Below are positions 31,604 through 44,582 of a stretch of DNA of 64,000 nt, one piece after another (position 1 is the stretch's first letter; each line of letters opens with the position of its first letter). The translations under genes were made by a program, and so were the position numbers. The notes under the pieces were generated by a model. That model was not told the DNA's origin. It worked only from the letters and a program-made list of their open reading frames with translations, and did not search any database. The stretch is from Bacteroidales bacterium (GTDB taxonomy: Bacteria > Bacteroidota > Bacteroidia > Bacteroidales > VadinHA17), in the NCBI GenBank assembly GCA_040769065.1, contig JAXGLU010000001.1, positions 1,991,218-2,055,217 of the forward strand, written 5' to 3'.

Positions 31604-31676
31604 TGCTCCGTGGTGTAATTGGCAACACGTCTGACTCTGGATCAGAAAAGTTCAGGTTCGAGCCCTGACGGAGCAA
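31604..31676 (+). tRNA. tRNA-Gln (anticodon CTG)
   Basis: Hand-folded cloverleaf: acceptor tgctccg/cggagca, D arm gtgt-aattggca-acac, anticodon arm tctga-ctCTGga-tcaga, variable aaagt, T arm tcagg-ttcgagc-cctga, discriminator a. Confidence 0.9.
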
Positions 31677-31677
31677 C
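31633..31677 (+). repeat. attL: 45-bp direct repeat (3' half of tRNA-Gln)
   Basis: 'gactctggatcagaaaagttcaggttcgagccctgacggagcaac' is identical to 38404-38448. Confidence 0.9.
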
Positions 31678-31685
31678 AACATTAT

Positions 31686-31727
31686 AAGCCACTTGCGGCA
31701 GTTAAATGTTCAGTGGCTTTTTTTATT
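31686..31727 (+). terminator. Rho-independent terminator for tRNA-Gln, supplied by the island
   Basis: 'aagccact-tgcggcagttaaatgttc-agtggctt' followed by a T8 run. Confidence 0.65.
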
Positions 31728-31744
31728 TGCATACGATTTGCATA
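31726..31744 (+). promoter_or_regulatory. Pair of TTTGCATA 8-mers, 11-bp period (candidate integrase arm-type sites, left end)
   Basis: 'TTTGCATAcgaTTTGCATA' recurs identically at 38267-38285. Confidence 0.4.
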
Positions 31745-31782
31745 AAAATGAGGGCTATTTTGAAAATTGAGGATAAAAGAGT

Positions 31783-32007
31783 TTAATAATTCTCGTATTC
31801 TTCAGCCGTAATCTCGACAGGTTCCTCAAAGGTTTCGCACACCAGATCGGTTTTCCTTTCAATCGGGTATTCCCTGCCTCCTTTATACTTTGCCTTGTAA
31901 TTTGTCGTTCCTGGAATAACTTTGATCGCGGTTGAGTAAAATTCATTCAACAGGTAAACCGTCTTGCCTTCCTGCAATTTCTTTACTATGTCGTCATAAG
32001 TGGTCAT
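31783..32007 (-). CDS. Small island protein, paralog 2 (74 aa, ends EEYENY)
   Basis: About 50% identical by eye to the adjacent 76-aa ORF. Both share 'TVYLLNE(L/F)Y..AIK.IPGT.NY.AK.KGG.EYPI' and the C-terminal 'EEYENY'. Confidence 0.6.
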   Translation of the reverse strand: MTTYDDIVKKLQEGKTVYLLNEFYSTAIKVIPGTTNYKAKYKGGREYPIERKTDLVCETFEEPVEITAEEYENY

Positions 32008-32027
32008 AATGCAATATGAATAACGGC

Positions 32028-32258
32028 TTAATAGTTTTCGTATTCTTCTTTTGTCATGATAACAGCATCTGTTAATGCTTCATATACTATCTCTGCACCG
32101 CTATTTATAGGGTATTCTTCTCCGCCTTTTATTTTTGCAATATAATTAGCTGTTCCAGGGATAAACTTAATTGCTATTTCATATAATTCATTTAGCAAAT
32201 AAACAGTCTCTCCCTTGTCAAGTAGGTGGTACACTTCCTTATAAGTACTTTTTCTCAT
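32028..32258 (-). CDS. Small island protein, paralog 1 (76 aa, ends EEYENY)
   Basis: See the paralog at 31783-32007. Conservation between tandem duplicates supports coding. Confidence 0.6.
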   Translation of the reverse strand: MRKSTYKEVYHLLDKGETVYLLNELYEIAIKFIPGTANYIAKIKGGEEYPINSGAEIVYEALTDAVIMTKEEYENY

Positions 32259-32468: not shown

Positions 32469-32690
32469 TCATTTTTGAGCAGACCCGGTTCTTGATAGCA
32501 TCAATTCGGTGAGTGCTTTTTCGGCCTGTCCACACAGCACGACATTTGCACCCCCGGAAGCCATCAGTAACCCCGTGAACGCTTCTCCCCTCTCACTGCA
32601 AATGACCGGGTTAGGTGGAATATCCGCCGGATCAATCAGGCCTGCCTCAATATCCCTAAGTAGCTGAATCTTATCTTTTTTGGTGTTCAT
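32469..32690 (-). CDS. Island hypothetical protein (73 aa)
   Basis: Its ATG overlaps the terS stop by 4 nt (ATGA coupling). Confidence 0.5.
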   Translation of the reverse strand: MNTKKDKIQLLRDIEAGLIDPADIPPNPVICSERGEAFTGLLMASGGANVVLCGQAEKALTELMLSRTGSAQK

Positions 32691-33193
32691 TTCTTGTTAG
32701 TAATTCGGTTAATAATTGCATCCAGTGTTGTTTCATCAAGTCGGTCGAGGTTGACGTCAAGCGCCTGCGGACTCTCAAATCCCAATATTCGGCAAATTCG
32801 TTCGGTTGTCCAGGCTTTTCCGTGCAACTTTAACTCAATCCCATGCCGAGTCTGTCGGATGCCTTCTACGGCCTTTATTTGGCTTTCTGGGAGGTCTGCA
32901 AAATCCTTGAATTGAATTTTTTTCCCATCGAAGTTCAGATAATCGGTAATTTTTGCCCGCAAGATGCTCGCTAGTTCCGCAAGTATTTCATCCTTAGTGA
33001 TATCAGTTCGTTTTCTTGCTTCTGTCTGAAGTTGCTGTAAAAATTGCTGCACCTTAACTAAACTTAACAACCTGGACGCTTGAAATTCTGCAGTGCGGGC
33101 CGAATAACCGGCCCGAATTGCGGCCTGCTTTCCGTTGAGGTCAAGAAGAAACTGCTGGCAAAACGCCTTCTGTTTTGGCGTTAATCGGCTCAT
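32687..33193 (-). CDS. terS: Phage terminase small subunit (Terminase_2/P27 type)
   Basis: 'LTPKQKAFCQQFLLDLNGKQAAIRAGYSARTAEFQASRLLSLVKVQQFL' is the canonical N-terminal HTH of this family. Confidence 0.85.
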   Translation of the reverse strand: MSRLTPKQKAFCQQFLLDLNGKQAAIRAGYSARTAEFQASRLLSLVKVQQFLQQLQTEARKRTDITKDEILAELASILRAKITDYLNFDGKKIQFKDFADLPESQIKAVEGIRQTRHGIELKLHGKAWTTERICRILGFESPQALDVNLDRLDETTLDAIINRITNKK

Positions 33194-33195
33194 AT

Positions 33196-33432
33196 TTAAT
33201 GGTTTATATCTCTCATTTCATTAATGAAGTCGTCTTCCTCATTATTTCCTTCCCCAGGTTGGTCAGCTTGACCAGTGGTGTTAATCTCTGCCATCGTCTT
33301 TATAAATTCATCTTCCGCCTCTTTTGCCGGATCCGGTGGCTCCTTCTCCGGGTTTTCGAGTTTCTTCATGCGTTCCTCAAAATTTTCGAGGTGTTTTTGG
33401 GCCCATTCTGGAATTTTTTCTTCAGCACTCAT
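33196..33432 (-). CDS. Island acidic protein (78 aa)
   Basis: Its ATG overlaps the upstream stop by 4 nt, and the sequence is E/D-rich. Function unknown. Confidence 0.45.
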   Translation of the reverse strand: MSAEEKIPEWAQKHLENFEERMKKLENPEKEPPDPAKEAEDEFIKTMAEINTTGQADQPGEGNNEEDDFINEMRDINH

Positions 33433-34061
33433 TTCACTAATTGTTGATAATCATTATATTTACTTGGGAAAAAGCTAGTTTCATCGAAATCAATCAGGTC
33501 AAATACATCTAATTGGCTCGTTTTGTCTTTAAAATTTGACCCCAAATTCGCCCAGAAGGTCGTTAATGCTTCACACGCCTTTTGAAGTTGTTCATACAGT
33601 GAGCGTTGTTCTTCTGTTTCTATTATGCTGCTGCATTCCTCCCGGATCAAATTCCAGGTTGAATCTGGAATACTGAAAACGCCGTCAATCAGATCATACC
33701 TATCCAGGGGAGTTGGAATATTAAATGGCGGTCGCCCCTTATTATGTTCAAACTCTGAAATCAGGGCCATTGCCTTTTCTTGGAATTCAGCTATTCGCTT
33801 GGCGGCCAGATCATCAAAAACCTCTGCCATCACGGGGTTCAATTTCCCCTTGAATGACTTCTTCAAAGCCTGCCGCAAATGCTCCTCGATCGTTTCAAAG
33901 TGCCTTTCCATGATTTGATCTAAAGTCATGCGATCTATTGGGCCTAGGCCTAAGGAAGCAAACAGGGCACCGATTTTGCGCAAGGTTTCAAGGTTTGCCT
34001 GATATATCCTTCGCCTCTCGCCGAACGCCACTTCATCAAAAAACAAAATTTCTTTTTCCAT
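33429..34061 (-). CDS. Island hypothetical protein (210 aa)
   Basis: Long ORF in the co-directional island gene run. No motif recognised. Confidence 0.55.
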   Translation of the reverse strand: MEKEILFFDEVAFGERRRIYQANLETLRKIGALFASLGLGPIDRMTLDQIMERHFETIEEHLRQALKKSFKGKLNPVMAEVFDDLAAKRIAEFQEKAMALISEFEHNKGRPPFNIPTPLDRYDLIDGVFSIPDSTWNLIREECSSIIETEEQRSLYEQLQKACEALTTFWANLGSNFKDKTSQLDVFDLIDFDETSFFPSKYNDYQQLVK

Positions 34062-34117: not shown

Positions 34118-35476
34118 TTAATTGATAGATACAGGGATTGTAACATCATATTGTATTATACAGTTTTCACTTACTTCATTCTCTCTATCATCAACTCTAT
34201 AATTCTCAATAACTATTTTGGGTGAAAATCCAACAAATTTTGTAAGTTCTTCGCACATAATTTTGCGGACGGCTTCCACCTCATCAGTGAGTATGCCCGT
34301 CATTATGGAATCATGAATACTTATCGCCACCACCCCCGGCAACTCCCTGTAAATTCTTTTAAGGATTACGTCAATTACTAAAAAACTCTCAATGGTTGCC
34401 AGCAGGATGGCAAATCTGTTGCTGTTTTTAAAACTGGTTCCCTGATCTCTCCCCCTAACTTTTGAAAAAACCCTGTGAACGGTCGGAAAACTCTTCTTAA
34501 AAATCATGCGGCATTTCCTGTTTACTTCATCTTTCGGCATTCTGTTGGGAGCAAATAAGATTCTTAATAGCTGAACTTTCGTTTCATCACGGGTTAGAAT
34601 TATCCCTTCCACGGCAAATTTTTGCATCAGGTATTCGTAAAGATTCCCGCAAATCACAAGCGAAATATATTTTTTTACATCATCCTTGTTTACAGATATT
34701 TTCAATGTTTGTAACAACATTTGAAAAGCAGGATTTTTTGCAAGGTGTGCGACCTTGGCGGGATACGTCAGAATAATAGTGCTGAGGTATGGTTGGCTGT
34801 TTTTTATATCAATGTTTGTGAGCGGTTTTCCGTTTACCCTGAGATATGACCTCAGTTCTTTTTTCATGTTAGTCACATTACTGTGAAACCGCCTTTCCGT
34901 GGCATCCCGTGAGTGCGTCCAGTCTTTGTTTACAATACGCATGGCAGAAGATAGGACTGAGTTGTAAACTTCCGTGTTGTCTTTATAGCTTTCAACCAGT
35001 TCCCGCCATCCATCGGCAAGCGTTAACTGTCGAATATACTTCACTTGTGGGGCGCACCCCCAAATCAATTTTATTGATTGCTTGCTCATCTCGGCATAAG
35101 CATTGCGGATCCTCCTTATGAGCTTGTTGTTTTTCAGGGGCAGGATGATATATTTACTTTGGTAGTCCTGTGTGAAGGTGTACCTGTAACTTACTTGTCC
35201 TGGAATGTAGTTAGGTGATCTTTTAATAACCTGAAGCTCTATTAAACCGGCCAGATACCTTTCGGCATAAGGCACCAATCGTCTCAGATACTCCATTCGT
35301 AGCGGGGGATCTTCATCATCCTTGCGTACATTACAGGCAACTATTGAAATAACCTCTTTCAGATAGTCAGAATTGTAACCTTTTATCTCCGCTGATAATA
35401 GTTTTTCTATTACCGGAAGATTCTGAATAACTTTTTCAGGAATTAACTGATAATATTTTCCCCCTTCAGCGTTCAT
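34118..35476 (-). CDS. 452-aa protein with T7-like/family-A polymerase motifs A, B and C (candidate compact polymerase or replicase)
   Basis: By-eye motifs are D191-ATERR, 'PLTNID223IKNS227QPYLSTIIL', 'R296DETK300VQLLRILF308A' and 'SIH388D389SIMT', in the canonical order. See findings. Confidence 0.4.
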   Translation of the reverse strand: MNAEGGKYYQLIPEKVIQNLPVIEKLLSAEIKGYNSDYLKEVISIVACNVRKDDEDPPLRMEYLRRLVPYAERYLAGLIELQVIKRSPNYIPGQVSYRYTFTQDYQSKYIILPLKNNKLIRRIRNAYAEMSKQSIKLIWGCAPQVKYIRQLTLADGWRELVESYKDNTEVYNSVLSSAMRIVNKDWTHSRDATERRFHSNVTNMKKELRSYLRVNGKPLTNIDIKNSQPYLSTIILTYPAKVAHLAKNPAFQMLLQTLKISVNKDDVKKYISLVICGNLYEYLMQKFAVEGIILTRDETKVQLLRILFAPNRMPKDEVNRKCRMIFKKSFPTVHRVFSKVRGRDQGTSFKNSNRFAILLATIESFLVIDVILKRIYRELPGVVAISIHDSIMTGILTDEVEAVRKIMCEELTKFVGFSPKIVIENYRVDDRENEVSENCIIQYDVTIPVSIN

Positions 35477-35706
35477 TAATTGTTCAGAATTGCGTTCACC
35501 GACCCAAGAGAAATATTTAATTGTTCGGCTATTTCCCGCTGACTTAGCCCCTTATCCCTTAATTTTCTTACCATGAACCTTGCCGGATCTGCTTTTTTCT
35601 CCCAATAGGCAGCATTATATTTCTTGATTAAGTCAGGATTCTTCCGCCGGTACTGCCGTTGATACTCGTTCCTTAATTGTCTTGCTTTTTCTGATAACAT
35701 TTTCAA
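35476..35706 (-). CDS. Small HTH protein (76 aa)
   Basis: C-terminal 'GLSQREIAEQLNISLGSVNAIL' is a sigma-70 region 4/LuxR-like HTH. The stop overlaps the next ATG (TAATG). The 5' end overlaps the nuclease ORF by 74 nt, so the true start may be internal. Confidence 0.55.
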   Translation of the reverse strand: MKMLSEKARQLRNEYQRQYRRKNPDLIKKYNAAYWEKKADPARFMVRKLRDKGLSQREIAEQLNISLGSVNAILNN

Positions 35707-36010
35707 TGAGTTTTATAAAATCCTGAAATTTCATCGCCACCACTGCCCCGGTATTATTCTTTTTGTGAATTACCAGGTTAATTTTGCTGTTCTGGGGCAT
35801 CTTGCAGTTAAGAATTTCATGATAGCCAGGCGACAGACGTTCCACATGTTTGCACTGAATTTGAAAATCTCCGGTGCCAGTCAGATCAATACCATTATAA
35901 TCATCCCAGGCACTTCCCATAAATCGTGAGGTGTAGCACTCTGGCCAGATAGCTCTTAAAATGCTTGCACATTCACGTTCCCACCGGTTGCCTTTTCGCT
36001 TAGAATTCAT
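35633..36010 (-). CDS. PD-(D/E)XK nuclease, Holliday-junction-resolvase-like
   Basis: 'KGNRWERECASIL' followed by 'NGIDLTGTGDFQIQCKHVE' gives an E...D...QxK arrangement, as in Hjc/RecB-like phage nucleases. Confidence 0.5.
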   Translation of the reverse strand: MNSKRKGNRWERECASILRAIWPECYTSRFMGSAWDDYNGIDLTGTGDFQIQCKHVERLSPGYHEILNCKMPQNSKINLVIHKKNNTGAVVAMKFQDFIKLIENVIRKSKTIKERVSTAVPAEES

Positions 36011-36018
36011 TGCCTGTT

Positions 36019-36327
36019 TTATTTAAGGTAAGAATCAGCGTTTTCCTTCATTTCCTGCCTTGTCGCATATCTCCCGGCTTTCAGGTATGCTATCAGCTCA
36101 TCGGTGGAAAAGTATAGACGCCCGCTCCTTTTCATGAAAGGAATTTCCTTTTTTGAAACTTTTGTGTAAAGTGTCGGGACGGTCAGATCTAGGAATTCGG
36201 ATGCTTCCTTAACATTAAGAATTCTTTCGGCCTCAGGATTTCCCGGTATGGGATGCTTCAGGTCGAGCAAAAGAGTTTCAATGCTCTCAAGCTTTGCATT
36301 AATAAAATCAAAAGGGTTTGTCATCAT
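36019..36327 (-). CDS. Excisionase-type HTH (HTH_17/MerR-like) DNA-binding protein
   Basis: 'LNVKEASEFLDLTVPTLYTKVSKKEIPFMKRSGRLYFSTDELIAYL' is the pattern common in Bacteroidota integrative elements. Confidence 0.75.
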   Translation of the reverse strand: MMTNPFDFINAKLESIETLLLDLKHPIPGNPEAERILNVKEASEFLDLTVPTLYTKVSKKEIPFMKRSGRLYFSTDELIAYLKAGRYATRQEMKENADSYLK

Positions 36328-36390: not shown

Positions 36391-36996
36391 TTAATAGTGG
36401 ATTCTTTTTAGGCTTTCAAGCTCTGCAGTTGCCCTGTTAATAGCAGCCTCAGATTTTAACAATGGGACAACACTTTCAAATAATTTTGTTTTCTCTTTTA
36501 ACCTGCGGGCTGTGCCGGGATCACCTGTGCGGTCAATCGATTTGGCGTATTTAAGATATGTGCTATACAATTTTTCACCACTTGTCAGACCGTAAGCTTT
36601 GACTATTTTATCCCCGTTTTGGCGGGTAATCTGAATCCCTTCATAAATATGGATTAATACAACCTGCTTCACAGTTAAGCCTGTTCTCTTTGGCTCTGAG
36701 AATTTCAAATTCCCGTTATCTTCAAGGAAGGTTTTTATTTCACTAATTAATAGCTCTATTCTTCTAATCTTAGAGGCTATCGGTTGAATCGTTGGACTCC
36801 CTTTGTAAGGTTCTAGTTCGGTTAACCAATATAGAAGTTTTTGACGGCATTCTTTTAAATGCTCAATGTCCTTGGCGGCCATGGCCTCACGTGTTTTATA
36901 CTTAATATCTTGCAAGACTTTATTAAGCTCAAGTTCGGCCGGCACATTCCTGGCTGTATTAATAAAATCATCTAACGTCTTAAATGTTTTCCTCAT
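36391..36996 (-). CDS. Island hypothetical protein (201 aa)
   Basis: Starts at the integrase stop. No motif recognised. Confidence 0.55.
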   Translation of the reverse strand: MRKTFKTLDDFINTARNVPAELELNKVLQDIKYKTREAMAAKDIEHLKECRQKLLYWLTELEPYKGSPTIQPIASKIRRIELLISEIKTFLEDNGNLKFSEPKRTGLTVKQVVLIHIYEGIQITRQNGDKIVKAYGLTSGEKLYSTYLKYAKSIDRTGDPGTARRLKEKTKLFESVVPLLKSEAAINRATAELESLKRIHY

Positions 36997-36997
36997 A

Positions 36998-38254
36998 TCA
37001 GTTAAAATCCATTAGCGTTTCAGCAAATTCTTTTTTACTCTGATCATCAAAACCGGCAAAATACGCCTGCGTGGTGGTAATATTATTGTGGCCCAAAGCT
37101 TCGCTAACGAATTCCATTGAGACCCCGCTCCGGATGGCAGTTGTGGCGTATGAATGCCTGGCCGTGTAAAATGATATGGTTTCCGGCAGACCGTTAACCT
37201 TGCAGATATGCTTTAAACTTTGATTCAGCATGCTGAGAAACGCAATTATCTTTTTACGCTGTACCTCAGCTGACTGATCGGCCCGGATTATGTCAAAAAT
37301 AAAGTTTTCCGGCGTTATATCAGGGGTGCCGTATTTCTGAATTACCTGTTTGGCAAAGTCATTCAAATAAACTGTAATTGCCTTTTGATTGCCTTTACTT
37401 GTGAGTCGGGTCTTTGCCCGGACAAATGTCAGTCGGTCATCCTGAATGTCTCTGTAGCGCAAATATGCCAGGTCTTTTAAATTGATGCCTGAACAGGAGA
37501 ATGACAGGAAGAAAAAATCTTTTGCTTTCTCCTGCCAAGGGGTTGAGGTAGGGGCATCAAATAACTGTTTTAATTCTTCTTTGCTCAGGGCTTTTTTTAC
37601 TTTCCTGGTTCGGGGAATTTCATATTTGAGGAACGGGTAAAAATCCTTACTGATTTCACCTTCATTAATTGCCCGATTATATACCGCCCTCAACGTTCTC
37701 GCATAAATCCCGACAGTTGTAAGACTGCGCTTTTTTGATGCTTGAACAGTCAAATAATGCTCAAAATCAGTCAGCCACTTAACCGTAATGTCGTAAAATG
37801 TCAGATTTTCATATTTAGTATTTCTACTTTCTGAGAATTCGCGAATGGCCTTTTCTGTAAGGTCGTAGCTGCTGGCACTTCCAAAACGTTCATATTTTTT
37901 CAGTTCCTTTATTACTTGCTGGAATTGGTATTGAAGCCTTATCCCGGCCCCAGCTTTGCGGTAAATTTTCTTTTCAAAGGTTTCTATATTAAACGGCTGT
38001 ATTTGCTTGGCTATTTCATTTGCCCGTCCTACAAGTGCCTGCATTTCAGCCCGTGTCTCCTTATATTTTTTTCTGGGCTTAGTTGTTAACCATGTGGCGG
38101 AAAATTCATCTTCTGAAAACTCAAATTTAGTTGCGAACAGCTTTTGACTTTTTATTGGCAACTGGGTATAGACCCGAAGTTTTACCGGAAATTTCCCGCT
38201 TTTTAATTTTCGGCGAGGATCAAGCCACAAACTAATCTCATAGTCTCTTTTCAT
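36998..38254 (-). CDS. int: Tyrosine recombinase/integrase (Bacteroidota phage-integrase type)
   Basis: 'TARHSYATTAIRSGVSMEFVSEALGHNNITTTQAYF' carries the R..H..R..Y catalytic box, and an N-terminal arm-binding/SAM-like region is present. The start was moved to 'MKRDYEISLW' (ATG 38252-38254). Confidence 0.9.
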   Translation of the reverse strand: MKRDYEISLWLDPRRKLKSGKFPVKLRVYTQLPIKSQKLFATKFEFSEDEFSATWLTTKPRKKYKETRAEMQALVGRANEIAKQIQPFNIETFEKKIYRKAGAGIRLQYQFQQVIKELKKYERFGSASSYDLTEKAIREFSESRNTKYENLTFYDITVKWLTDFEHYLTVQASKKRSLTTVGIYARTLRAVYNRAINEGEISKDFYPFLKYEIPRTRKVKKALSKEELKQLFDAPTSTPWQEKAKDFFFLSFSCSGINLKDLAYLRYRDIQDDRLTFVRAKTRLTSKGNQKAITVYLNDFAKQVIQKYGTPDITPENFIFDIIRADQSAEVQRKKIIAFLSMLNQSLKHICKVNGLPETISFYTARHSYATTAIRSGVSMEFVSEALGHNNITTTQAYFAGFDDQSKKEFAETLMDFN

Positions 38255-38266
38255 TGTTACTATGAA

Positions 38267-38285
38267 TTTGCATACGATTTGCATA
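38267..38285 (+). promoter_or_regulatory. Pair of TTTGCATA 8-mers (candidate arm-type sites, right end), 13 nt upstream of int start
   Basis: 'TTTGCATAcgaTTTGCATA' is identical to 31726-31744. Confidence 0.4.
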
Positions 38286-38403
38286 CAAAATAACAAAATA
38301 TACATATAACAAACAAGCAAAGAGTTTTGTTTTTAAAACATAACTATTATATTTACAAAGGATTCTAACAAATAACAATAAATAAAGAATAAGCGACTTT
38401 TAA

Positions 38404-38448
38404 GACTCTGGATCAGAAAAGTTCAGGTTCGAGCCCTGACGGAGCAAC
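38404..38448 (+). repeat. attR: 45-bp direct repeat of the tRNA-Gln 3' half
   Basis: Identical to 31633-31677. Confidence 0.9.
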
Positions 38449-38452
38449 CAGA

Positions 38453-38477
38453 TGCCGGTTATTTAGCCGGCATTTTT
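38453..38477 (+). terminator. Terminator-like hairpin in the 72-bp spacer between attR and a third partial att copy
   Basis: 'tgccgg-ttatttag-ccggca' followed by a T5 run. Confidence 0.4.
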
Positions 38478-38520: not shown

Positions 38521-38558
38521 GAGCCCTGACGGAGCAATAACATTATAAGCCACTTATC
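38521..38558 (+). repeat. Third, partial copy of the tRNA-Gln 3' end (17 bp) plus ~20 bp resembling the region just downstream of the tRNA
   Basis: 'gagccctgacggagcaaTaacattataagccactt' compares with 31661-31697 'gagccctgacggagcaaCaacattataagccactt'. A hairpin and T run follow at 38550-38584. Confidence 0.7.
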
Positions 38559-39001: not shown

Positions 39002-39586
39002 ATGAAGGATCAGATTGCCTATAGAATCAAAAATGGAGATGAGTACTCTTTCGAACTGCTCTTCAGGAAGTATTATGTAAGATTATGCTGTTTCGCCAAC
39101 AAATTTCTCAATGATCCAGAAGAGGCACGTGAAATCGTTCAGGATGTATTTCTTAAGTTATGGGAGGCAAGGGAAGACATTAAACCGGAAGATTCACTTA
39201 ACTCCTACATCTTCAGTGTGACCAGGAACAAATGTATAAATAAACTTCGCAGGAGAAATATTGAATCAAAATATACTGAAATTCTACAACTGGTGTATGC
39301 TGAAAACAGGGAAATTTCCCCACATGATTCCCTCCTTGCCAATGAACTGGGTAATGAATTCTCCGTTGCTATTGAAAAACTGCCGGCTAGATGCAGGGAA
39401 ATATTCGATCTAAGCAGAATAGAGGGTCTCAGATACAACGAAATTGCCATAATGCTGCATATATCAGTTAAAACTGTTGAAGCACAAATGTCAAAAGCAT
39501 TGAAGATCCTCAGATTTGAACTTAAGGATTACCTTTTAATACTGATACTTGTCTGTCTGTCAGCCTCATATAATCTTTCTTTATAA
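39002..39586 (+). CDS. ECF-type RNA polymerase sigma-70 factor
   Basis: Region 2 'EIVQDVFLKLWE' and region 4 'LPARCREIFDLSRIEGLRYNEIAIMLHISVKTVEAQMSKAL'. Confidence 0.9.
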   Translation: MKDQIAYRIKNGDEYSFELLFRKYYVRLCCFANKFLNDPEEAREIVQDVFLKLWEAREDIKPEDSLNSYIFSVTRNKCINKLRRRNIESKYTEILQLVYAENREISPHDSLLANELGNEFSVAIEKLPARCREIFDLSRIEGLRYNEIAIMLHISVKTVEAQMSKALKILRFELKDYLLILILVCLSASYNLSL

Positions 39587-39888
39587 TCTCTTTCCGGCAA
39601 TCCTTTGCAGGCATCATTAAAGTGAATGCAAAACAAACAAATAATTAAAGAAGTTTTTGTTCCTGCTTGTCTTTAATCAAAGTAATCATACTGTCTAAAT
39701 AGAAAACCCGGGGGTCAGCTTTCCCGCTTCAGTTCCTGGGTAAAAACCGAAATCAAATTAAATATGATCTGTAAGTTTAGAATTATTTCAACTTTAGGTC
39801 AACGGGTATGGTAAGAATTAACAATTTCTTTTACTGCCAATAAGGGTAAAAAGTGTTCAGATTGTATTATCATATATAAAACCATCAA

Positions 39889-40947
39889 ATGAAAGAAGAA
39901 TTGGACTACAGGGAACTGCTTGTTAAATTTTTAGCCGGCGAGATTTCTGATAACGAAGCTGACGTTTTAAAGGAATGGCTGAAAAAAGATCCTGACAACC
40001 GGAGGATTTTTGATATTGAAAATGAATTGTGGCAGAAAACAGGGGTAAAGACTATTCTTGACCATTTTAAAACTGATGAAGACTGGTCGGAAATTTCCGG
40101 GAAGATTGGATTGAAAAAAGATGGTGAAGGCCACTTAATGACAATTACCAGGACCAGGTTCAGAATACTGATAGCAGCAGCATCAATCGCCTTTTTAGCT
40201 GCACTGGGGGGTATTACATTATGGATGACCGAAAGAAAATCGGTAAAAATGATATCCGACGCATCAACAGTCATCAGCACCTGTGAGGGAGAAAAGGCAA
40301 GAATCTGGCTTTCAGACTCTACAAAAGTAATCATCAATTCAGGAAGCAATATCGAATATAAATCAGATTATAATGTCAGGGAACGTATTTTAAAACTGAA
40401 AGGGGAGGCCTTTTTTGATGTTCGGACAAACCCTGAAAAACCCCTTCTGGTACAGCTGGGAGAAATGACCATCTCTGCAGCTGGAACTAAGTTCAATGTT
40501 TTTTCCTACGAAAATGAAGATCGTATTGAAACAACACTTGAAGAAGGTAAATTAAAGGTTGAAATACCCGGGCTGGAGTCAATTGAATTAAAAGCCGGTC
40601 AGCAGGTCGTTTATTTCACAAAAAAGAAAAAAGCCGAAGTGAGGAATGTAAATACGGAAACCTATACGTCATGGAAAGAAAACAAGCTTAGGTTTATTGA
40701 CACACCTTTCGAAGAGGTATTAAGAAGGATTGCGAGACGATATAATGTCACTTTTGAGGTGACAAGCAGGCACCTTCTTGACCTGCAATATACAGCTACC
40801 TTTATTGATGAGTCTATCGAAGAAGTGATGCATATGTTAAGGGAAGTAAGTCCCATTACTTACAAAATACATAACCGTACCACAGTTAAGGATAAATATT
40901 ATCTAAAACCCAAGATTGTTGTGGGCAAGAGAAAAAGTTCCGTTTGA
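39889..40947 (+). CDS. FecR-family anti-sigma factor
   Basis: N-terminal anti-sigma segment, a single TM ('ILIAAASIAFLAALGGITLWM'), a FecR domain ('LSDSTKVIINSGSNIEY...LKGEAFFDV') and a C-terminal DUF4974-like part. Confidence 0.85.
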   Translation: MKEELDYRELLVKFLAGEISDNEADVLKEWLKKDPDNRRIFDIENELWQKTGVKTILDHFKTDEDWSEISGKIGLKKDGEGHLMTITRTRFRILIAAASIAFLAALGGITLWMTERKSVKMISDASTVISTCEGEKARIWLSDSTKVIINSGSNIEYKSDYNVRERILKLKGEAFFDVRTNPEKPLLVQLGEMTISAAGTKFNVFSYENEDRIETTLEEGKLKVEIPGLESIELKAGQQVVYFTKKKKAEVRNVNTETYTSWKENKLRFIDTPFEEVLRRIARRYNVTFEVTSRHLLDLQYTATFIDESIEEVMHMLREVSPITYKIHNRTTVKDKYYLKPKIVVGKRKSSV

Positions 40948-41195
40948 CCTGAAATATAATTATTTAACCTACTCTAAACCTCTAATGCCTATGAAATAAA
41001 CCTTCTACGACAAGAAAAAGCAGGGAAGCCCTTCCCGGCCTCCCCGCAGTTTTAAAGCATTTATACCCGATTCTAGCCCGGTAAAAATGCGATTTAGCTT
41101 ATTAACTTTCTAAATCATACAAATTTATGAAAAAAATCTTTATTGTTTTACATACAGGTCCGTTCCGTGTCTGTACGTATAAAATTATCAGAATC

Positions 41196-44100
41196 ATGAA
41201 ACTAACCTATTTTCTGTTATTTTCTACAATTCTCAGTGCATATAGCAGTTCAACATATTCCCAGTATACAAAGTTGAACCTCGAAATGGAGGATGTCCCG
41301 ATCCATACAGTGCTTAGCTCAATAGAAAGACAGAGCGAATTCTTTTTCCTTTATAGCTCAAAAATGATAGATGTTACCCAAAAAGTAGACATCAAAGCTG
41401 AAGGACAAAGTGTTTATGAAATTATGGATAAGCTTTTTGCGGATACCGATATTAAATACACTGTAAGGGACAGACAGATACTTCTTGTAAACAAAGAAGC
41501 CGAACCTGTAATAACACCTGTGCAGAAGAGGATCACAGGACGTATAACCGACGAAAACGGATTACCTGTTACAGGGGCAAATGTTACAGTGAAAGGATCA
41601 ACCGTTGGGGCTATAACTGATATTGATGGCAGATATAGCCTGATCCCTCCCGACAGAGCTGAAACTCTCATAATATCATTTGTCGGCTACATATCTCAGG
41701 AAATAAATATCGGTAATGCATCGACAATAAATGCTACTCTGGTCCCGGACACACAATCCCTTTCTGAAGTGGTGGTTGTGGGATATGGATCGCAAAGGAA
41801 AAGCGACATTACCGGTTCTGTAAGCTCAGTTAAAGGCCCCGACCTGGTTCAACTGCCCTCTATCAGGTCAGATGAAGCCTTACAAGGACGTGCCGCCGGC
41901 GTTGTGGTCACAAACAATGACGGGGCTCCGGGTGGTGCAGCAACGATCAGAATCAGGGGAGGAAATTCAATTACAGGAAGCAACGATGCCCTTGTAGTAA
42001 TTGACGGATTTCAGGGAGGAGATCTCAGCTCATTGAATCCCAATGAGGTCGAATCAATAGAAGTACTTAAGGATGCTTCGGCTACAGCTATATATGGCTC
42101 AAAGGGCGCCAACGGAGTGATTCTTGTTACAACAAAAAGAGGAAAGACCGGAGCTCCCATTATTGATTACAGCTATAGCTACGGTGCTCAGTCAATTGTA
42201 AAGAAAATTGACCTTTTCAATGCCGGTGAATATGCAAGGATAGCCAATGTATGGAAAGCATCCCAGAATCTCTACGGTGATCCTGTACTGCCCTTCACTG
42301 AAGCTCAGATTGCCGAGCTTGACAGGAAAGGGGGAACTGACTGGCAGGACGAGATGTTCCGGACAGCCCCGTTACAGATACACCAGATCTCTTTAAGGGG
42401 AGGATCGGAGTCAGTCAGATATTTCATTGCAGGAGGCTATTTTGATCAGACAGGATTGATCGTCAATACTCAGTTCGAACGCTATACTCTTCGGTCTAAT
42501 CTGGATATGAACCTTACAAAATGGCTGAAGGGTGGCCTTAATATGAATGTGATCAAGGACAAAGGCAATATACCTCCGTCAGGAGAAGGTACCAGATATG
42601 TCGATATTTTAACTCAGGCTGTTAATGCTGTCCTTCGCTTCGATCCCATAACTCCTGTCTTTGATGAACTTGGCAATTACAGCAGACCACCCAGTACATA
42701 TGGCGACAGGGATGTCTGGAATCCGATGGCTACAGCTATGGGCTCTTTTAACGAGCGGAGCAACACGACAACCAATTTAAATGCATTCCTGGAATTCAGA
42801 ATCATTGAAGGACTAACCCTCAAAGTTACCGGTGCTGCCGGAATCTATAATTCTGACAGGAAACAATATTACAATACTCTGACAAAAGTAGGAAGACCTA
42901 TTAATGGCATTGGTAATCTGATAGATGACAAAAATCTATATTATCAGAACTCAAATATTCTTACATATGATAAAATCATAAATACAAAACATCATTTAAC
43001 CCTTACGGGTGTGGCTGAGCAGCAGTCGACCTCGGCCTATGGTTCGAACATACAGGTTCAGGGATTTGCCTCCGATATTACCGGTGTTTATGATATAGGC
43101 GGAGCAAGCCAGACAAATTACAGATCTTCTTATGAATCAAAAAGAAATATAAATTCATGGTTGCTCCGTGCCAACTACGGATTTGCCAATAAATATCTGC
43201 TGACAGTAAGCTATCGGGCAGACGGATCCTCAGTTTTTGGTAAGAACAATAAGTGGGGTTATTTCCCGTCGGCATCCATTGCCTGGAGAGCATCAGAAGA
43301 AGATTTTATAAAAACCCTCAATATCTTTTCTGATCTGAAGCTGAGAGGAAGCTGGGGTCAGACGGGTAACCAGGCTATCGCTGTTTATGGTTCACTGGCA
43401 AAGATCGGATCGGGATTGAATTATCCCTATAACGGCACAAGCACTACTGATACAGGGTATGGTATAACAAGTGCTCCAAATGTGAATCTCAAATGGGAAA
43501 CAACCTCACAGACCAACCTTGGTATTGACATGGGATTTTTTAAGGGCAGGCTGACAGCTACATTCGATGTATATCGGAAAGAGACCTCCGACCTGCTTCT
43601 TGACAAGCCTGTTCCATTCTATACAGGGGCACCAAGTGCTCAGTTACTGGATAATGTAGGGTCGATCGAAAACAAAGGAATGGAAATTACTGTCAGCGGT
43701 GATCCGCTGGTGCGTTCTTTCAGATGGAACACCGGCATAAACATTACAATAAACAGAAGCAAAGTACTTAAGCTGCTTAATGAATTACCGATGGGTCTGA
43801 AAACATCTACCGGTGGCGGATATGGAATCTACAGGGCAGCATCCAATTCACTGATGTATCTGCAGGAAGGCCAGCCAATGGGCCAGATGCGTGGTTATAT
43901 CGTTCTGGGCACATGGAGTGAGGCGGAACGTGACGAAGCCCTGAAATATGGCCAGCTGCCCGGCGATCAGAAGTACAAGGATATTAACAATGACGGAAAG
44001 ATAACTGAAGCCGGAGATGTTACAGTGATAGGAAATTCATCACCTGATTTTGTTTTCGGATGGAATAACAGTATGGCCTGGAAAAACTTCACCCTCTCCT

Positions 44101-44582
44101 TCCTTATTCAGGGATCACAGGGTAATGATATATTCAATGCAACCAGGATACAACTCGAAGCTCCCAGCAAGGGAACTAGCAAAGCCCTGGATAACAGATG
44201 GACAATTGACAACCAGGATACCGACATCCCGGCATTTACCGACCAGATAACACGACGAGAAGCTCTTCTGGGAATACCATCAAAGATAAACCTCGGAAGG
44301 TCACCTAATAGACTTAGCAGATATGTTGAAGACGGATCCTATGCCAGGCTGAAAACAATAACTCTGGGATATAACCTCCCGAAAACACTTATCGAAAAAG
44401 TTGGCCTTTCTAACCTCAGGGCATATGTCACAGCTGCCAACATCATTACCCTAACAAAGTATTCCGGCTATGATCCGGAGGTTAGTTCCTTTAACGTTGC
44501 TACCGATGGGGGAAGAGGAATAGATCTGAGTAATTATCCCACTGTAAAAACAATCACATTCGGAATCAATTTAACTTTCTAA
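41196..44582 (+). CDS. susC: SusC/RagA-family TonB-dependent transporter with N-terminal STN signalling domain
   Basis: STN-like 'EDVPIHTVLSSIERQSEFFFLYS', a CarboxypepD_reg-like 'ITGRITDENGLPVTGANVTVKGS', plug 'VVVVGYGSQRKSDITGSV...NGVILVTTKRG', and C-terminal '...ITFGINLTF'. The start was moved to MKLTYFLLF (41196). Confidence 0.9.
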   Translation: MKLTYFLLFSTILSAYSSSTYSQYTKLNLEMEDVPIHTVLSSIERQSEFFFLYSSKMIDVTQKVDIKAEGQSVYEIMDKLFADTDIKYTVRDRQILLVNKEAEPVITPVQKRITGRITDENGLPVTGANVTVKGSTVGAITDIDGRYSLIPPDRAETLIISFVGYISQEINIGNASTINATLVPDTQSLSEVVVVGYGSQRKSDITGSVSSVKGPDLVQLPSIRSDEALQGRAAGVVVTNNDGAPGGAATIRIRGGNSITGSNDALVVIDGFQGGDLSSLNPNEVESIEVLKDASATAIYGSKGANGVILVTTKRGKTGAPIIDYSYSYGAQSIVKKIDLFNAGEYARIANVWKASQNLYGDPVLPFTEAQIAELDRKGGTDWQDEMFRTAPLQIHQISLRGGSESVRYFIAGGYFDQTGLIVNTQFERYTLRSNLDMNLTKWLKGGLNMNVIKDKGNIPPSGEGTRYVDILTQAVNAVLRFDPITPVFDELGNYSRPPSTYGDRDVWNPMATAMGSFNERSNTTTNLNAFLEFRIIEGLTLKVTGAAGIYNSDRKQYYNTLTKVGRPINGIGNLIDDKNLYYQNSNILTYDKIINTKHHLTLTGVAEQQSTSAYGSNIQVQGFASDITGVYDIGGASQTNYRSSYESKRNINSWLLRANYGFANKYLLTVSYRADGSSVFGKNNKWGYFPSASIAWRASEEDFIKTLNIFSDLKLRGSWGQTGNQAIAVYGSLAKIGSGLNYPYNGTSTTDTGYGITSAPNVNLKWETTSQTNLGIDMGFFKGRLTATFDVYRKETSDLLLDKPVPFYTGAPSAQLLDNVGSIENKGMEITVSGDPLVRSFRWNTGINITINRSKVLKLLNELPMGLKTSTGGGYGIYRAASNSLMYLQEGQPMGQMRGYIVLGTWSEAERDEALKYGQLPGDQKYKDINNDGKITEAGDVTVIGNSSPDFVFGWNNSMAWKNFTLSFLIQGSQGNDIFNATRIQLEAPSKGTSKALDNRWTIDNQDTDIPAFTDQITRREALLGIPSKINLGRSPNRLSRYVEDGSYARLKTITLGYNLPKTLIEKVGLSNLRAYVTAANIITLTKYSGYDPEVSSFNVATDGGRGIDLSNYPTVKTITFGINLTF

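Follow-up and report, generated by a model that had tools for sequence, protein, structure and literature searches.

An exonuclease-less relative of DNA polymerase I encoded by a satellite-like island of a Bacteroidales bacterium

The 64,000-nt stretch of a Bacteroidales genome analysed here (the window; all coordinates are window positions) contains an island of about 6.8 kb, which is integrated at a tRNA-Gln gene and measures 6771 bp between its att repeats. The genes of the island, all on the minus strand, include those of a tyrosine integrase, a small helix-turn-helix (HTH) protein matching HTH_17, a PDDEXK-type nuclease, a small terminase subunit (TerS) and a 452-aa protein, which is the subject of this work. 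The open reading frame (ORF) of the latter has 452 codons and begins with an ATG; in the sequence 'TAATG' the last base of the TAA stop of the preceding 76-aa HTH gene is also the first base of this ATG. A first-pass annotation, made by eye, had read in its translation the motif set of T7-like/family-A single-subunit polymerases. The ORF is present at the stated position; it lies on the minus strand, and a script confirmed the numbering of the quoted residues (D191-A-T-E-R-R196, D223, S227, R296, K300, F308, H388 and D389); the quoted motif spacings of 77 and 89 aa are the distances from D223 to K300 and from K300 to D389. Three independent lines agree that the protein is a true relative of DNA polymerase I, family A.

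An AlphaFold2 model computed from the alignment had a mean predicted local distance difference test (pLDDT) score of 82 and a predicted TM-score (pTM) of 0.78. The top 50 Foldseek matches of this model in the PDB were all family-A enzymes: 49 DNA polymerases and, at rank 35, POLRMT. They included Klenow, KlenTaq, the apicoplast polymerase, Pol I of Aquifex and of M. smegmatis, T7 DNA polymerase and Pol nu, with E-values from 7e-4, probabilities of 0.75-1.0 and TMq values of 0.22-0.37. Such low TM-scores are no surprise in an enzyme of several domains whose fingers and thumb can move and whose N-terminus differs. Among the predicted viral structures of BFVD the best matches were stand-alone proteins of about 400 aa (TM 0.65-0.73, E 2e-18 and 7e-15), one of which carries the name 'Putative DNA polymerase I' (TM 0.66/0.73, E 7e-15). 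Also matched there were DNA polymerases of phages and, from virophages or giant viruses, replication proteins of the TV-Pol (transposon-virus polymerase)-helicase type, among them a 'DNA replication protein' of the Zamilon V13 type (probability 1.0, E 7e-3).

Pairwise searches pointed the same way. A tblastn search against phages found weak matches to DNA polymerases of Herelleviridae, and BLASTP aligned the protein with Pol I of Lactobacillus phage Dionysus, a member of that family, over 256 residues at 25% identity (E 8e-7); this alignment pairs D223 with the 'NLDFKSLE' motif A of the phage enzyme and 'ISIHDSI' with 'ITVHDSI'. Single sequences of T7 DNA polymerase, T7 RNA polymerase and E. 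coli Pol I were insufficient as hhalign targets: the family profile aligned with them in motif C only, or in a spurious stretch (Prob <1%), and a PolA profile was therefore needed. It was built from 28 PF00476 polymerase domains, namely Klenow 520-928, T7 DNA polymerase, the Dionysus enzyme and 25 metagenomic PolAs. With default columns the family matched this profile with Prob 79% and E 1.6e-5; with match states taken from the first sequence the values were 92.9% and 3.7e-7, over 221 colinear columns, and a global alignment of the same profiles gave 94.8% and 1e-8. On their own, residues 258-430, the C-terminal half from which motifs 2 and A are absent, reached Prob 74% locally (E 2.9e-5) and 91% globally. 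The structure and profile searches together bear out the earlier description of a right-hand polymerase: palm, fingers and thumb are those of family A.

Domain libraries do not recognise the protein. A Pfam scan gave no match at E <= 1, so that the gathering threshold of PF00476 was not reached; NCBIfam and PADLOC had no match, the single PHROGs match (E 0.05) was meaningless, and phmmer and hmmsearch against all PDB sequences returned nothing relevant. No unrelated family was matched in Pfam, PHROGs, NCBIfam or PADLOC. The enzyme thus falls outside DNA_pol_A as Pfam defines it, although its homology to this family is demonstrable.

It is also not a solitary sequence. A word-indexed search returned 397 relatives; the few that are named in their source are all 'hypothetical', and those with an organism label come from Bacteroidales or Bacteroidetes metagenome-assembled genomes (MAGs). 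With a profile of 38 sequences, a HMMER scan of 1.84 billion cluster representatives found 5149 proteins (50%-identity clusters) at E <= 1e-3 and 3089 at E <= 1e-10, the best-scoring full-length members being mostly 420-560 aa long. From the relatives a diverse alignment of 54 sequences was made, with 24-53% identity to the 452-aa query; a Pfam scan of these 54 found no domain at E <= 0.01. R196, D223, Q228, Y280, K300, E363, H388 and D389 are invariant columns of this alignment. Conservation was counted in 150 representatives of the 50%-identity clusters, over non-gap cells (Table 1). The motif residues are under strong constraint, since they are near-invariant in these representatives, and this conservation, together with the profile E-value of 3.7e-7, puts the motif set far beyond what chance would give. 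The positions of D223, K300, F308 and D389, on which the first-pass annotation had staked its reading, are conserved throughout a family of more than 5000 clusters, position 308 being either F or Y.

Table 1. Motif residues of the island polymerase, their Klenow equivalents in the hhalign alignment to the PolA profile, and their conservation
Residue	Klenow equivalent	Location	Conservation (representatives)
D191			125/142
R196	R668	motif 2, 'TGRLSS..NLQN' vs 'T.GRFHSN.TNL'; beta-hairpin	143/143
D223	D705	motif A, palm	142/142
Q228	E710	motif A, D+5	140/142
Y280	H734	'DIH' region	
R296	R754	motif B, fingers	133/143
K300	K758	motif B	143/143
L304 (F in most relatives)	F762	motif B	
F308	Y766	motif B	F in 108, Y in 33 (141 cells; F = 76%)
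F330-P331	Y795-P796	'YFxxYPGV'; query motif 'FxxxFPxV' (F326, F330, P331)	
Position 360 (Q in family, A in query)	Q849	motif 6, with E363	137/142
E363		motif 6	142/142
H388	H881	motif C	137/142
D389	D882	motif C, palm	141/142
S390	E883	motif C	129/142

The profile alignment to the Klenow polymerase domain agrees residue for residue with the alignment of motifs A, B and C that had been made by eye. D223 and D389, conserved and colinear with their Klenow counterparts, are the two predicted metal-binding aspartates of the palm. In the fourth motif that had been proposed, D191-A-T-E-R-R196, D191 itself is only moderately conserved (125/142); the functionally corresponding residue of motif 2 is R196, which matches Klenow R668. 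In the BLASTP alignment motif B fell on residues 267-283 (G277/Y280), a helix without the motif lysine; the profile puts Y280 on H734 and R296xxxK300 on R754xxxK758, and the BLASTP placement is a gap-cost artefact. In motif A, S227-Q228 could alternatively be set on S707-Q708 by a two-residue insertion, whereas hhalign gives the gapless register in which Q228 corresponds to E710. With the polymerase domains of Klenow, KlenTaq and Herelleviridae Pol I the island enzyme shares the fold and, in colinear order, motifs 2, A, B, 'YFxxYPGV', 6 and C, and its polymerase domain is of similar length. Its identity to them is low (about 11-14%), and it lacks a PF00476 match and both the 3'-5' and the 5'-3' exonuclease. 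E710, Y766 and E883 are replaced by Q, F and S, about 29 aa are inserted after motif A, ahead of the region equivalent to 'GxDIH', and the N-terminus is winged-helix-like.

This N-terminal domain stands where Pol I has its exonuclease. Modelled alone, residues 1-116 gave a pLDDT of 83.5; their Foldseek matches in the PDB were weak, none having an E-value below 0.12, but winged-helix DNA-binding proteins (such as MarR, ArsR/SmtB, ScpB and TubR) made up nearly the whole list of 50. P13, Y74, R86, Y99 and S107 are invariant in this domain within the close family. The following helical region, codons 117-185, aligned loosely to the Klenow thumb in a low-stringency hhalign comparison and was not significant alone. 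Residues 427-452 are disordered in the AlphaFold2 model. An exonuclease domain is lacking: residues 1-116 model as winged-helix-like, and no nuclease family is matched in Pfam or PHROGs. The term 'miniaturised' is not appropriate: residues ~117-425 are roughly as extensive as the whole polymerase domain of Pol I (409 aa in Klenow, 520-928). The enzyme is 'exo-less' rather than miniaturised, the missing part being the exonuclease domain.

The steric gate of Pol I is E710. T7 RNA polymerase has a glycine (Gly542) at the equivalent position and uses Tyr639 in the selection of rNTPs. For a comparison with RNA polymerases a 9-member profile of T7-like enzymes was made from phage genomes, and a PolA profile of matching size was used beside it. 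The family matched the RNA polymerase profile with Prob 15%, in motif C only, and the PolA profiles with Prob 72% (9 members) and 93% (28 members). From Q228 at the steric-gate position, Phe308 and this preference for PolA we infer that the enzyme would use deoxynucleoside triphosphates (dNTPs), i.e. that it is probably a DNA polymerase.

The protein might instead be a miniature T7-like single-subunit RNA polymerase, which would transcribe the island genes or make an RNA primer at an origin. The two kinds of enzyme belong to one superfamily, and both have, in concept, an N-terminal DNA-binding domain in place of the exonuclease; motif C of the island protein reads HDS as in T7 RNA polymerase (H811-D812-S813) and not HDE as in Pol I, a serine occupies motif A D+4 in both, and POLRMT is among the structural matches. 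In addition, the RNA polymerase profile was matched better by the island family than by the PolA profile (Prob 1.2%). That T7 RNA polymerase and POLRMT prime DNA replication is established (cited in PMC2579912). On the other hand, Foldseek ranks 1-34 are all DNA polymerases, the profile signal lies with PolA, and the island protein, half the size of T7 RNA polymerase, has in its 452 aa neither a specificity loop nor a T7-type promoter-binding domain. Moreover, the steric-gate position holds an invariant, bulky Q228 instead of Gly542, and the counterpart of Tyr639, at position 308, is a Phe in the query as in 76% of its relatives. We consider an RNA polymerase improbable. The family-A part of the original assignment stands, and the enzyme is nearer to DNA Pol I than to the T7-like RNA polymerases.

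The island in which the polymerase lies is listed in Table 2. Neither capsid nor tail genes were detected in it by Pfam and PHROGs scans, and in the same scans the polymerase was its only replication-type gene. An integrase and an excisionase-like gene, a replication gene of its own, TerS and no structural genes make up the anatomy of a phage satellite like the phage-inducible chromosomal islands (PICIs); with this anatomy the island may also behave as a satellite. The polymerase occupies the place in which PICIs carry a primase or helicase, as the first-pass annotation had noted.

Table 2. Features of the island, in the direction of transcription
Feature	Position	Strand	Basis
attR, 45-nt direct repeat of the tRNA-Gln 3' end	38404..38448	plus	repeat search: 50 nt at 96%
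Tyrosine integrase	36998..38320	minus	Pfam Phage_int_SAM_5 E 4e-17, Phage_integrase E 3e-14
201-aa protein between integrase and HTH_17 gene	36391..36996	minus	no family match in Pfam, PHROGs, NCBIfam, PADLOC scans
102-aa HTH_17 (excisionase/AlpA-like) protein	36019..36327	minus	Pfam HTH_17 E 5e-11
125-aa PDDEXK-type nuclease	35633..36010	minus	Pfam PDDEXK_15 E 7e-6; PHROG 244 E 4e-16
76-aa HTH protein, translationally coupled to polymerase	35476..35706	minus	Pfam HTH_24 E 1e-6; one-base stop/start overlap
452-aa exonuclease-less family-A-type (TV-Pol-like) polymerase	34118..35476	minus	ORF, AlphaFold2, Foldseek, hhalign, BLASTP
Polymerase, N-terminal winged-helix-like domain, codons 1-116	35129..35476	minus	separate AlphaFold2 model
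Polymerase, helical region taken as thumb, codons 117-185	34922..35128	minus	model helices 117-138, 168-182
Polymerase, palm and fingers, codons 186-425	34202..34921	minus	residues of motifs 2, A, B, 'FxxxFPxV', 6 and C
210-aa protein downstream of polymerase	33429..34061	minus	no family match in Pfam, PHROGs, NCBIfam, PADLOC scans
78-aa protein of no assigned function, listed between the 210-aa protein and TerS		minus	
Small terminase subunit TerS	32687..33193	minus	Pfam Terminase_2 E 3.9e-35; tblastn matches annotated phage TerS
73-aa ORF, listed after TerS		minus	
Two tandem paralogous ORFs, 74 and 76 aa, tRNA-proximal island end	31783-32258	minus	no family match
tRNA-Gln(CTG)	31604..31677	plus	ARAGORN, Rfam; 3' 45 nt (31633-31677) = attL

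Some further observations concern the ends of the island. A 24-nt sequence, 'ATTTGCATACGATTTGCATA(A/C)AAA', with two ATTTGCATA units, is found inside both ends (31725-31748 and 38266-38289); the two copies are candidate arm-type binding sites of the integrase or the excisionase. As listed, the integrase ORF has a TTG start and 22 odd-looking leading residues. Translation probably begins at the Met of 'MKRDYEIS' near 38254, in which case the repeat at 38266-38289 would fall in the integrase promoter region. The paralogous 74- and 76-aa proteins look beta-rich on inspection and are possible OB-fold partners of the polymerase. A scan for promoters and terminators, using a sigma-70 model ill-suited to Bacteroidota, yielded nothing in the island that stood out; a terminator-like hairpin follows attR (38450-38475). 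At 38521-38555, 73 bp beyond attR, part of the tRNA-Gln 3' end with its island-side flank recurs once more, with 97% identity to 31660-31694; this third copy looks like the scar of an earlier insertion by a related element. Just past attR (39002-44582) the translations suggest ECF sigma-like, FecR-like anti-sigma-like and SusC/TonB-type outer-membrane genes, a set consistent with a Bacteroidota chromosome.

Close relatives of the polymerase were found in 22 species-representative genomes, of Bacteroidales, Rikenellaceae, Prolixibacteraceae, Bacteroidaceae, a Melioribacteraceae MAG and Lutibacter litoralis, and gene neighbourhoods were counted over 21 related loci. Of the 21, 20 have an HTH_17 gene upstream of the polymerase and 16 have an integrase homolog. 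In 12 loci a tRNA gene is found not more than a few kb from the polymerase; the tRNA differs between loci, and ten of these genes are on the opposite strand, 2.5-7 kb downstream, the other two just upstream. These distances imply elements of 6-9 kb. Integrase, HTH_17 protein and polymerase thus form the conserved core of 6-9-kb elements, mostly linked to tRNA genes, across Bacteroidota.

Outside this core the gene content varies. The gene coupled to the polymerase on its upstream side encodes an HTH protein, a PDDEXK nuclease or a 289-aa protein, depending on the locus. Upstream of the polymerase in other loci there is an ORF of 186-289 aa, similar in position to the 201-aa protein of the island and dissimilar in sequence. 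Downstream, where the island has its 210-aa protein, most loci have an ORF of 204-242 aa, often followed by one of about 100 aa, which correspond to each other in size and position only. Further downstream cargo includes AbiH (locus L031), RadC and DUF5681 proteins, and some of the elements carry, like the island of the window, small-terminase genes. The DUF5681 proteins, of about 105 aa and with an N-terminal 'GxSGNPxGRPKG', are encoded downstream of the polymerase in seven of the 21 elements (L008:11407-11748, L012:9629-9946, L020:9942-10253 and four further loci), roughly at the position of TerS, and may represent an alternative packaging protein.

Distant homologs are found in four records of uncultured megaphages (595-735 kb), in a Pinkberry virus and in two Hymenobacter plasmids. 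The Pinkberry homolog (OP947160, L005:1695-2762; tblastn E 2e-5, motifs 2 to C) is labelled 'DNA methyltransferase', probably a mis-annotation. In megaphage LR756511 (595 kb) the family member, of 387 aa (L046:5863-7026), shares an overlapping stop/start with a different exo-less PolA-like ORF of 428 aa (L046:7023-8309), which contains FDYHFHE, RSLCKD..TVYG, IIQSPGA and HIHDG; there is no integrase nearby.

The variable cargo bears on whether the polymerase could be an effector directed against phages or against the helper, acting by aberrant DNA synthesis or by sequestering replication intermediates of the helper. Related elements do carry defence cargo, such as the AbiH mentioned above, and homologs occur on replicons with their own replication machinery (the Hymenobacter plasmid with Rep; a megaphage). 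Defence has been raised as a possibility for PolA-SSB modules (Rice, PMC10061031), SSB being a single-stranded DNA-binding protein. The polymerase, however, belongs to the conserved core beside integrase and excisionase, whereas the defence-type genes are variable cargo, and no PADLOC model matches it. We consider an effector role highly improbable.

Several known systems resemble the island polymerase. TV-Pols were defined by Iyer, Abhiman and Aravind in 2008, who predicted for them a primase-polymerase activity (PMC2579912). They have a thumb, the beta-hairpin Arg, the two Asp and RxxxK, never a proofreading domain; in one subset an additional N-terminal domain is present and the gene neighbours a lambda-type integrase (PMC2579912). 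Mobile elements encode TV-Pols next to such an integrase, a resolvase or a transposase, and a D5-like helicase, fused or adjacent, marks one of their two typical contexts. The island polymerase shares this minimal core (a bi-helical thumb by secondary structure, the beta-hairpin Arg, two palm Asp and RxxxK) without an exonuclease, the length of 400-600 aa, the occurrence on mobile elements with lambda-type integrases and in Bacteroidetes, the N-terminal-domain subset and the lack of a Pfam model. Foldseek also links its model to the virophage and giant-virus TV-Pol-helicase proteins. It differs in having no linked D5-like helicase, in the often adjacent PDDEXK nuclease, in the small terminase of the island and in its winged-helix-like (alpha+beta) N-terminal domain, which in TV-PolN is predicted to be all-helical. 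Gp030 of phage Ma-LMM01, encoded beside transposases, may be the TV-Pol of that phage; hhalign against its family gave Prob 1.8% locally and 10% globally, sharing just 'LLQRIE'. The polymerase fits the TV-Pol definition structurally and contextually, as an enzyme of a kind known since 2008; in the one comparison by sequence, that with gp030, no link to a named member emerged.

The second comparison is with CcPol of SCCmec, which together with the OB-fold protein MP forms a primase-polymerase that uses dNTPs (Bebel 2020, PMC7581432; Rice 2023, PMC10061031). CcPol, too, has a family-A catalytic domain without a functional exonuclease and is encoded near the recombinase of a small integrative element. 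It is reported to keep the equivalents of E710 and F762 (PMC7581432), and its bulky steric-gate residue is a Glu where the island polymerase has a Gln, also bulky, consistent with dNTP use. Unlike the island enzyme, whose family PF00476 does not recognise, CcPol needs the adjacent MP and the helicase Cch2 and belongs to Bacillota elements with serine recombinases; the elements of Bacteroidota show no conserved partner gene and no helicase, and the recombinase is a tyrosine integrase.

Two divergent groups of exo-less PolAs, divPolA1 and divPolA2, have been described in phages (PMC11348598). The divPolA2 of barbaviruses resembles the island polymerase in being an exo-less PolA-like protein of about 435 aa with an unrecognised N-terminal domain, and the Barba31A protein was a weak structural match (BFVD rank 17, TM ~0.29), but divPolA2 is found in phage genomes of 80-85 kb beside PolB and not in small integrative islands. 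As an element, the island resembles PICIs and the marine virion-encapsidated integrative mobile elements (VEIMEs), 'module 6' of which comprises TerS and DNA polymerase genes (PMC9618062): it is about 7 kb long and has an integrase, an excisionase-like regulator, a replication gene, TerS and no capsid genes. PICIs normally encode a primase/helicase (Pri-Rep) rather than a family-A polymerase. A term search of the 2023 reclassification of PolA into 19 clusters found neither such a family nor a mention of Bacteroidetes (PMC10201439). A literature search on phage satellites and family-A polymerases found nothing, the nearest paper on a Bacteroidota satellite being irrelevant.

Taken as a whole, the data are best explained by an exonuclease-less family-A polymerase of the TV-Pol type that copies the DNA of a satellite island, and we regard this explanation as reasonably probable. 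The identification as a polymerase, first made from motifs, is supported; the role proposed with it, as replicase, primase or transcriptase of the satellite, rests on context. After excision the polymerase would synthesise DNA on the circular island, from dNTPs and without proofreading. This would raise the copy number and provide a packaging substrate, which the TerS of the island would divert into the capsids of a helper phage. By analogy with CcPol-MP and with the TV-Pol prediction, chains may be started de novo, the N-terminal DNA-binding domain replacing the separate single-stranded DNA-binding partner. A still bolder version, in which a single self-contained polypeptide acts as a family-A primase-polymerase, its winged-helix domain recognising the origin and no SSB, primase or element-encoded helicase being required, is tentative, and we think it rather unlikely to hold in full.

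A number of observations weigh against such a replicase. Iterons or origin-like repeats were searched for in the island and none was found. Neither the island nor five further neighbourhoods showed a helicase, SSB or primase beside the polymerase, which means that the element must borrow much of a replisome. We know of no family-A enzyme that primes de novo when acting alone; CcPol depends on MP. Where motif C of Pol I has its third carboxylate (E883), the island enzyme has a Ser, as does T7 RNA polymerase. Klenow Q849 contacts the minor groove, and its otherwise near-invariant counterpart Q360 has been lost in the subclade of the island: at codon 360 (34397-34399) the query and its closest relatives are of the Ala, Ser or Arg type ('LLATIES' where the family has 'LLQRIES'), a change specific to this subclade. 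Among the viral contigs of IMG/VR no close relatives were found, and packaging is a prediction from the gene content. Finally, the Hymenobacter plasmid examined, which carries a homolog, has its own Rep and ParA and is therefore uninformative about a role as replicase, and the megaphage homolog sits outside any integrase element; the enzyme is thus not always 'the' replicase of its replicon.

An alternative is a strictly primer-dependent DNA polymerase without priming activity. Such an enzyme would extend a host or island transcript, as in ColE1, or a nick made by the PDDEXK nuclease, or would act in gap filling or repair; the nick route would lead, by rolling-circle or strand-displacement synthesis, to concatemers for packaging. 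A primer is required by every canonical family-A DNA polymerase that has been characterised, and without MP CcPol can only extend primers (PMC7581432). A PDDEXK or (Holliday-junction-)resolvase-like nuclease is encoded directly upstream of the polymerase in at least eight of the 21 loci: homologs of the island PDDEXK protein occupy this position in L008, L010 and L012, and another nuclease family in four more. To judge from the differing neighbour genes, there is no conserved OB-fold partner gene. Marine VEIMEs, some with TerS and a DNA polymerase gene, are packaged as concatemers (PMC9618062). Against primer dependence, the nuclease is not universal in related elements, the conserved N-terminal winged-helix-like domain suggests specific DNA recognition, as in self-priming enzymes, and the contextual argument made for TV-Pols favours priming (PMC2579912). 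We consider this alternative unlikely, though less so than an RNA polymerase.

A polymerase of the TV-Pol type that replicates satellite-like islands would be an enzyme of a kind already described; what is new is a large un-annotated clade of it in Bacteroidota and its satellite-like context. Once the family is annotated, thousands of small islands in Bacteroidota of the gut and the environment could be identified as elements that replicate or as candidate phage satellites. To our knowledge, CcPol-MP is the only TV-Pol-type enzyme that has been characterised biochemically. With a stand-alone member that has a DNA-binding domain of its own, it could be tested cleanly whether priming by a family-A active site requires a partner protein. 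If the self-priming reading were true, the family would constitute a new class of replication initiators and would mark a large, hitherto unrecognised family of phage satellites in Bacteroidota.

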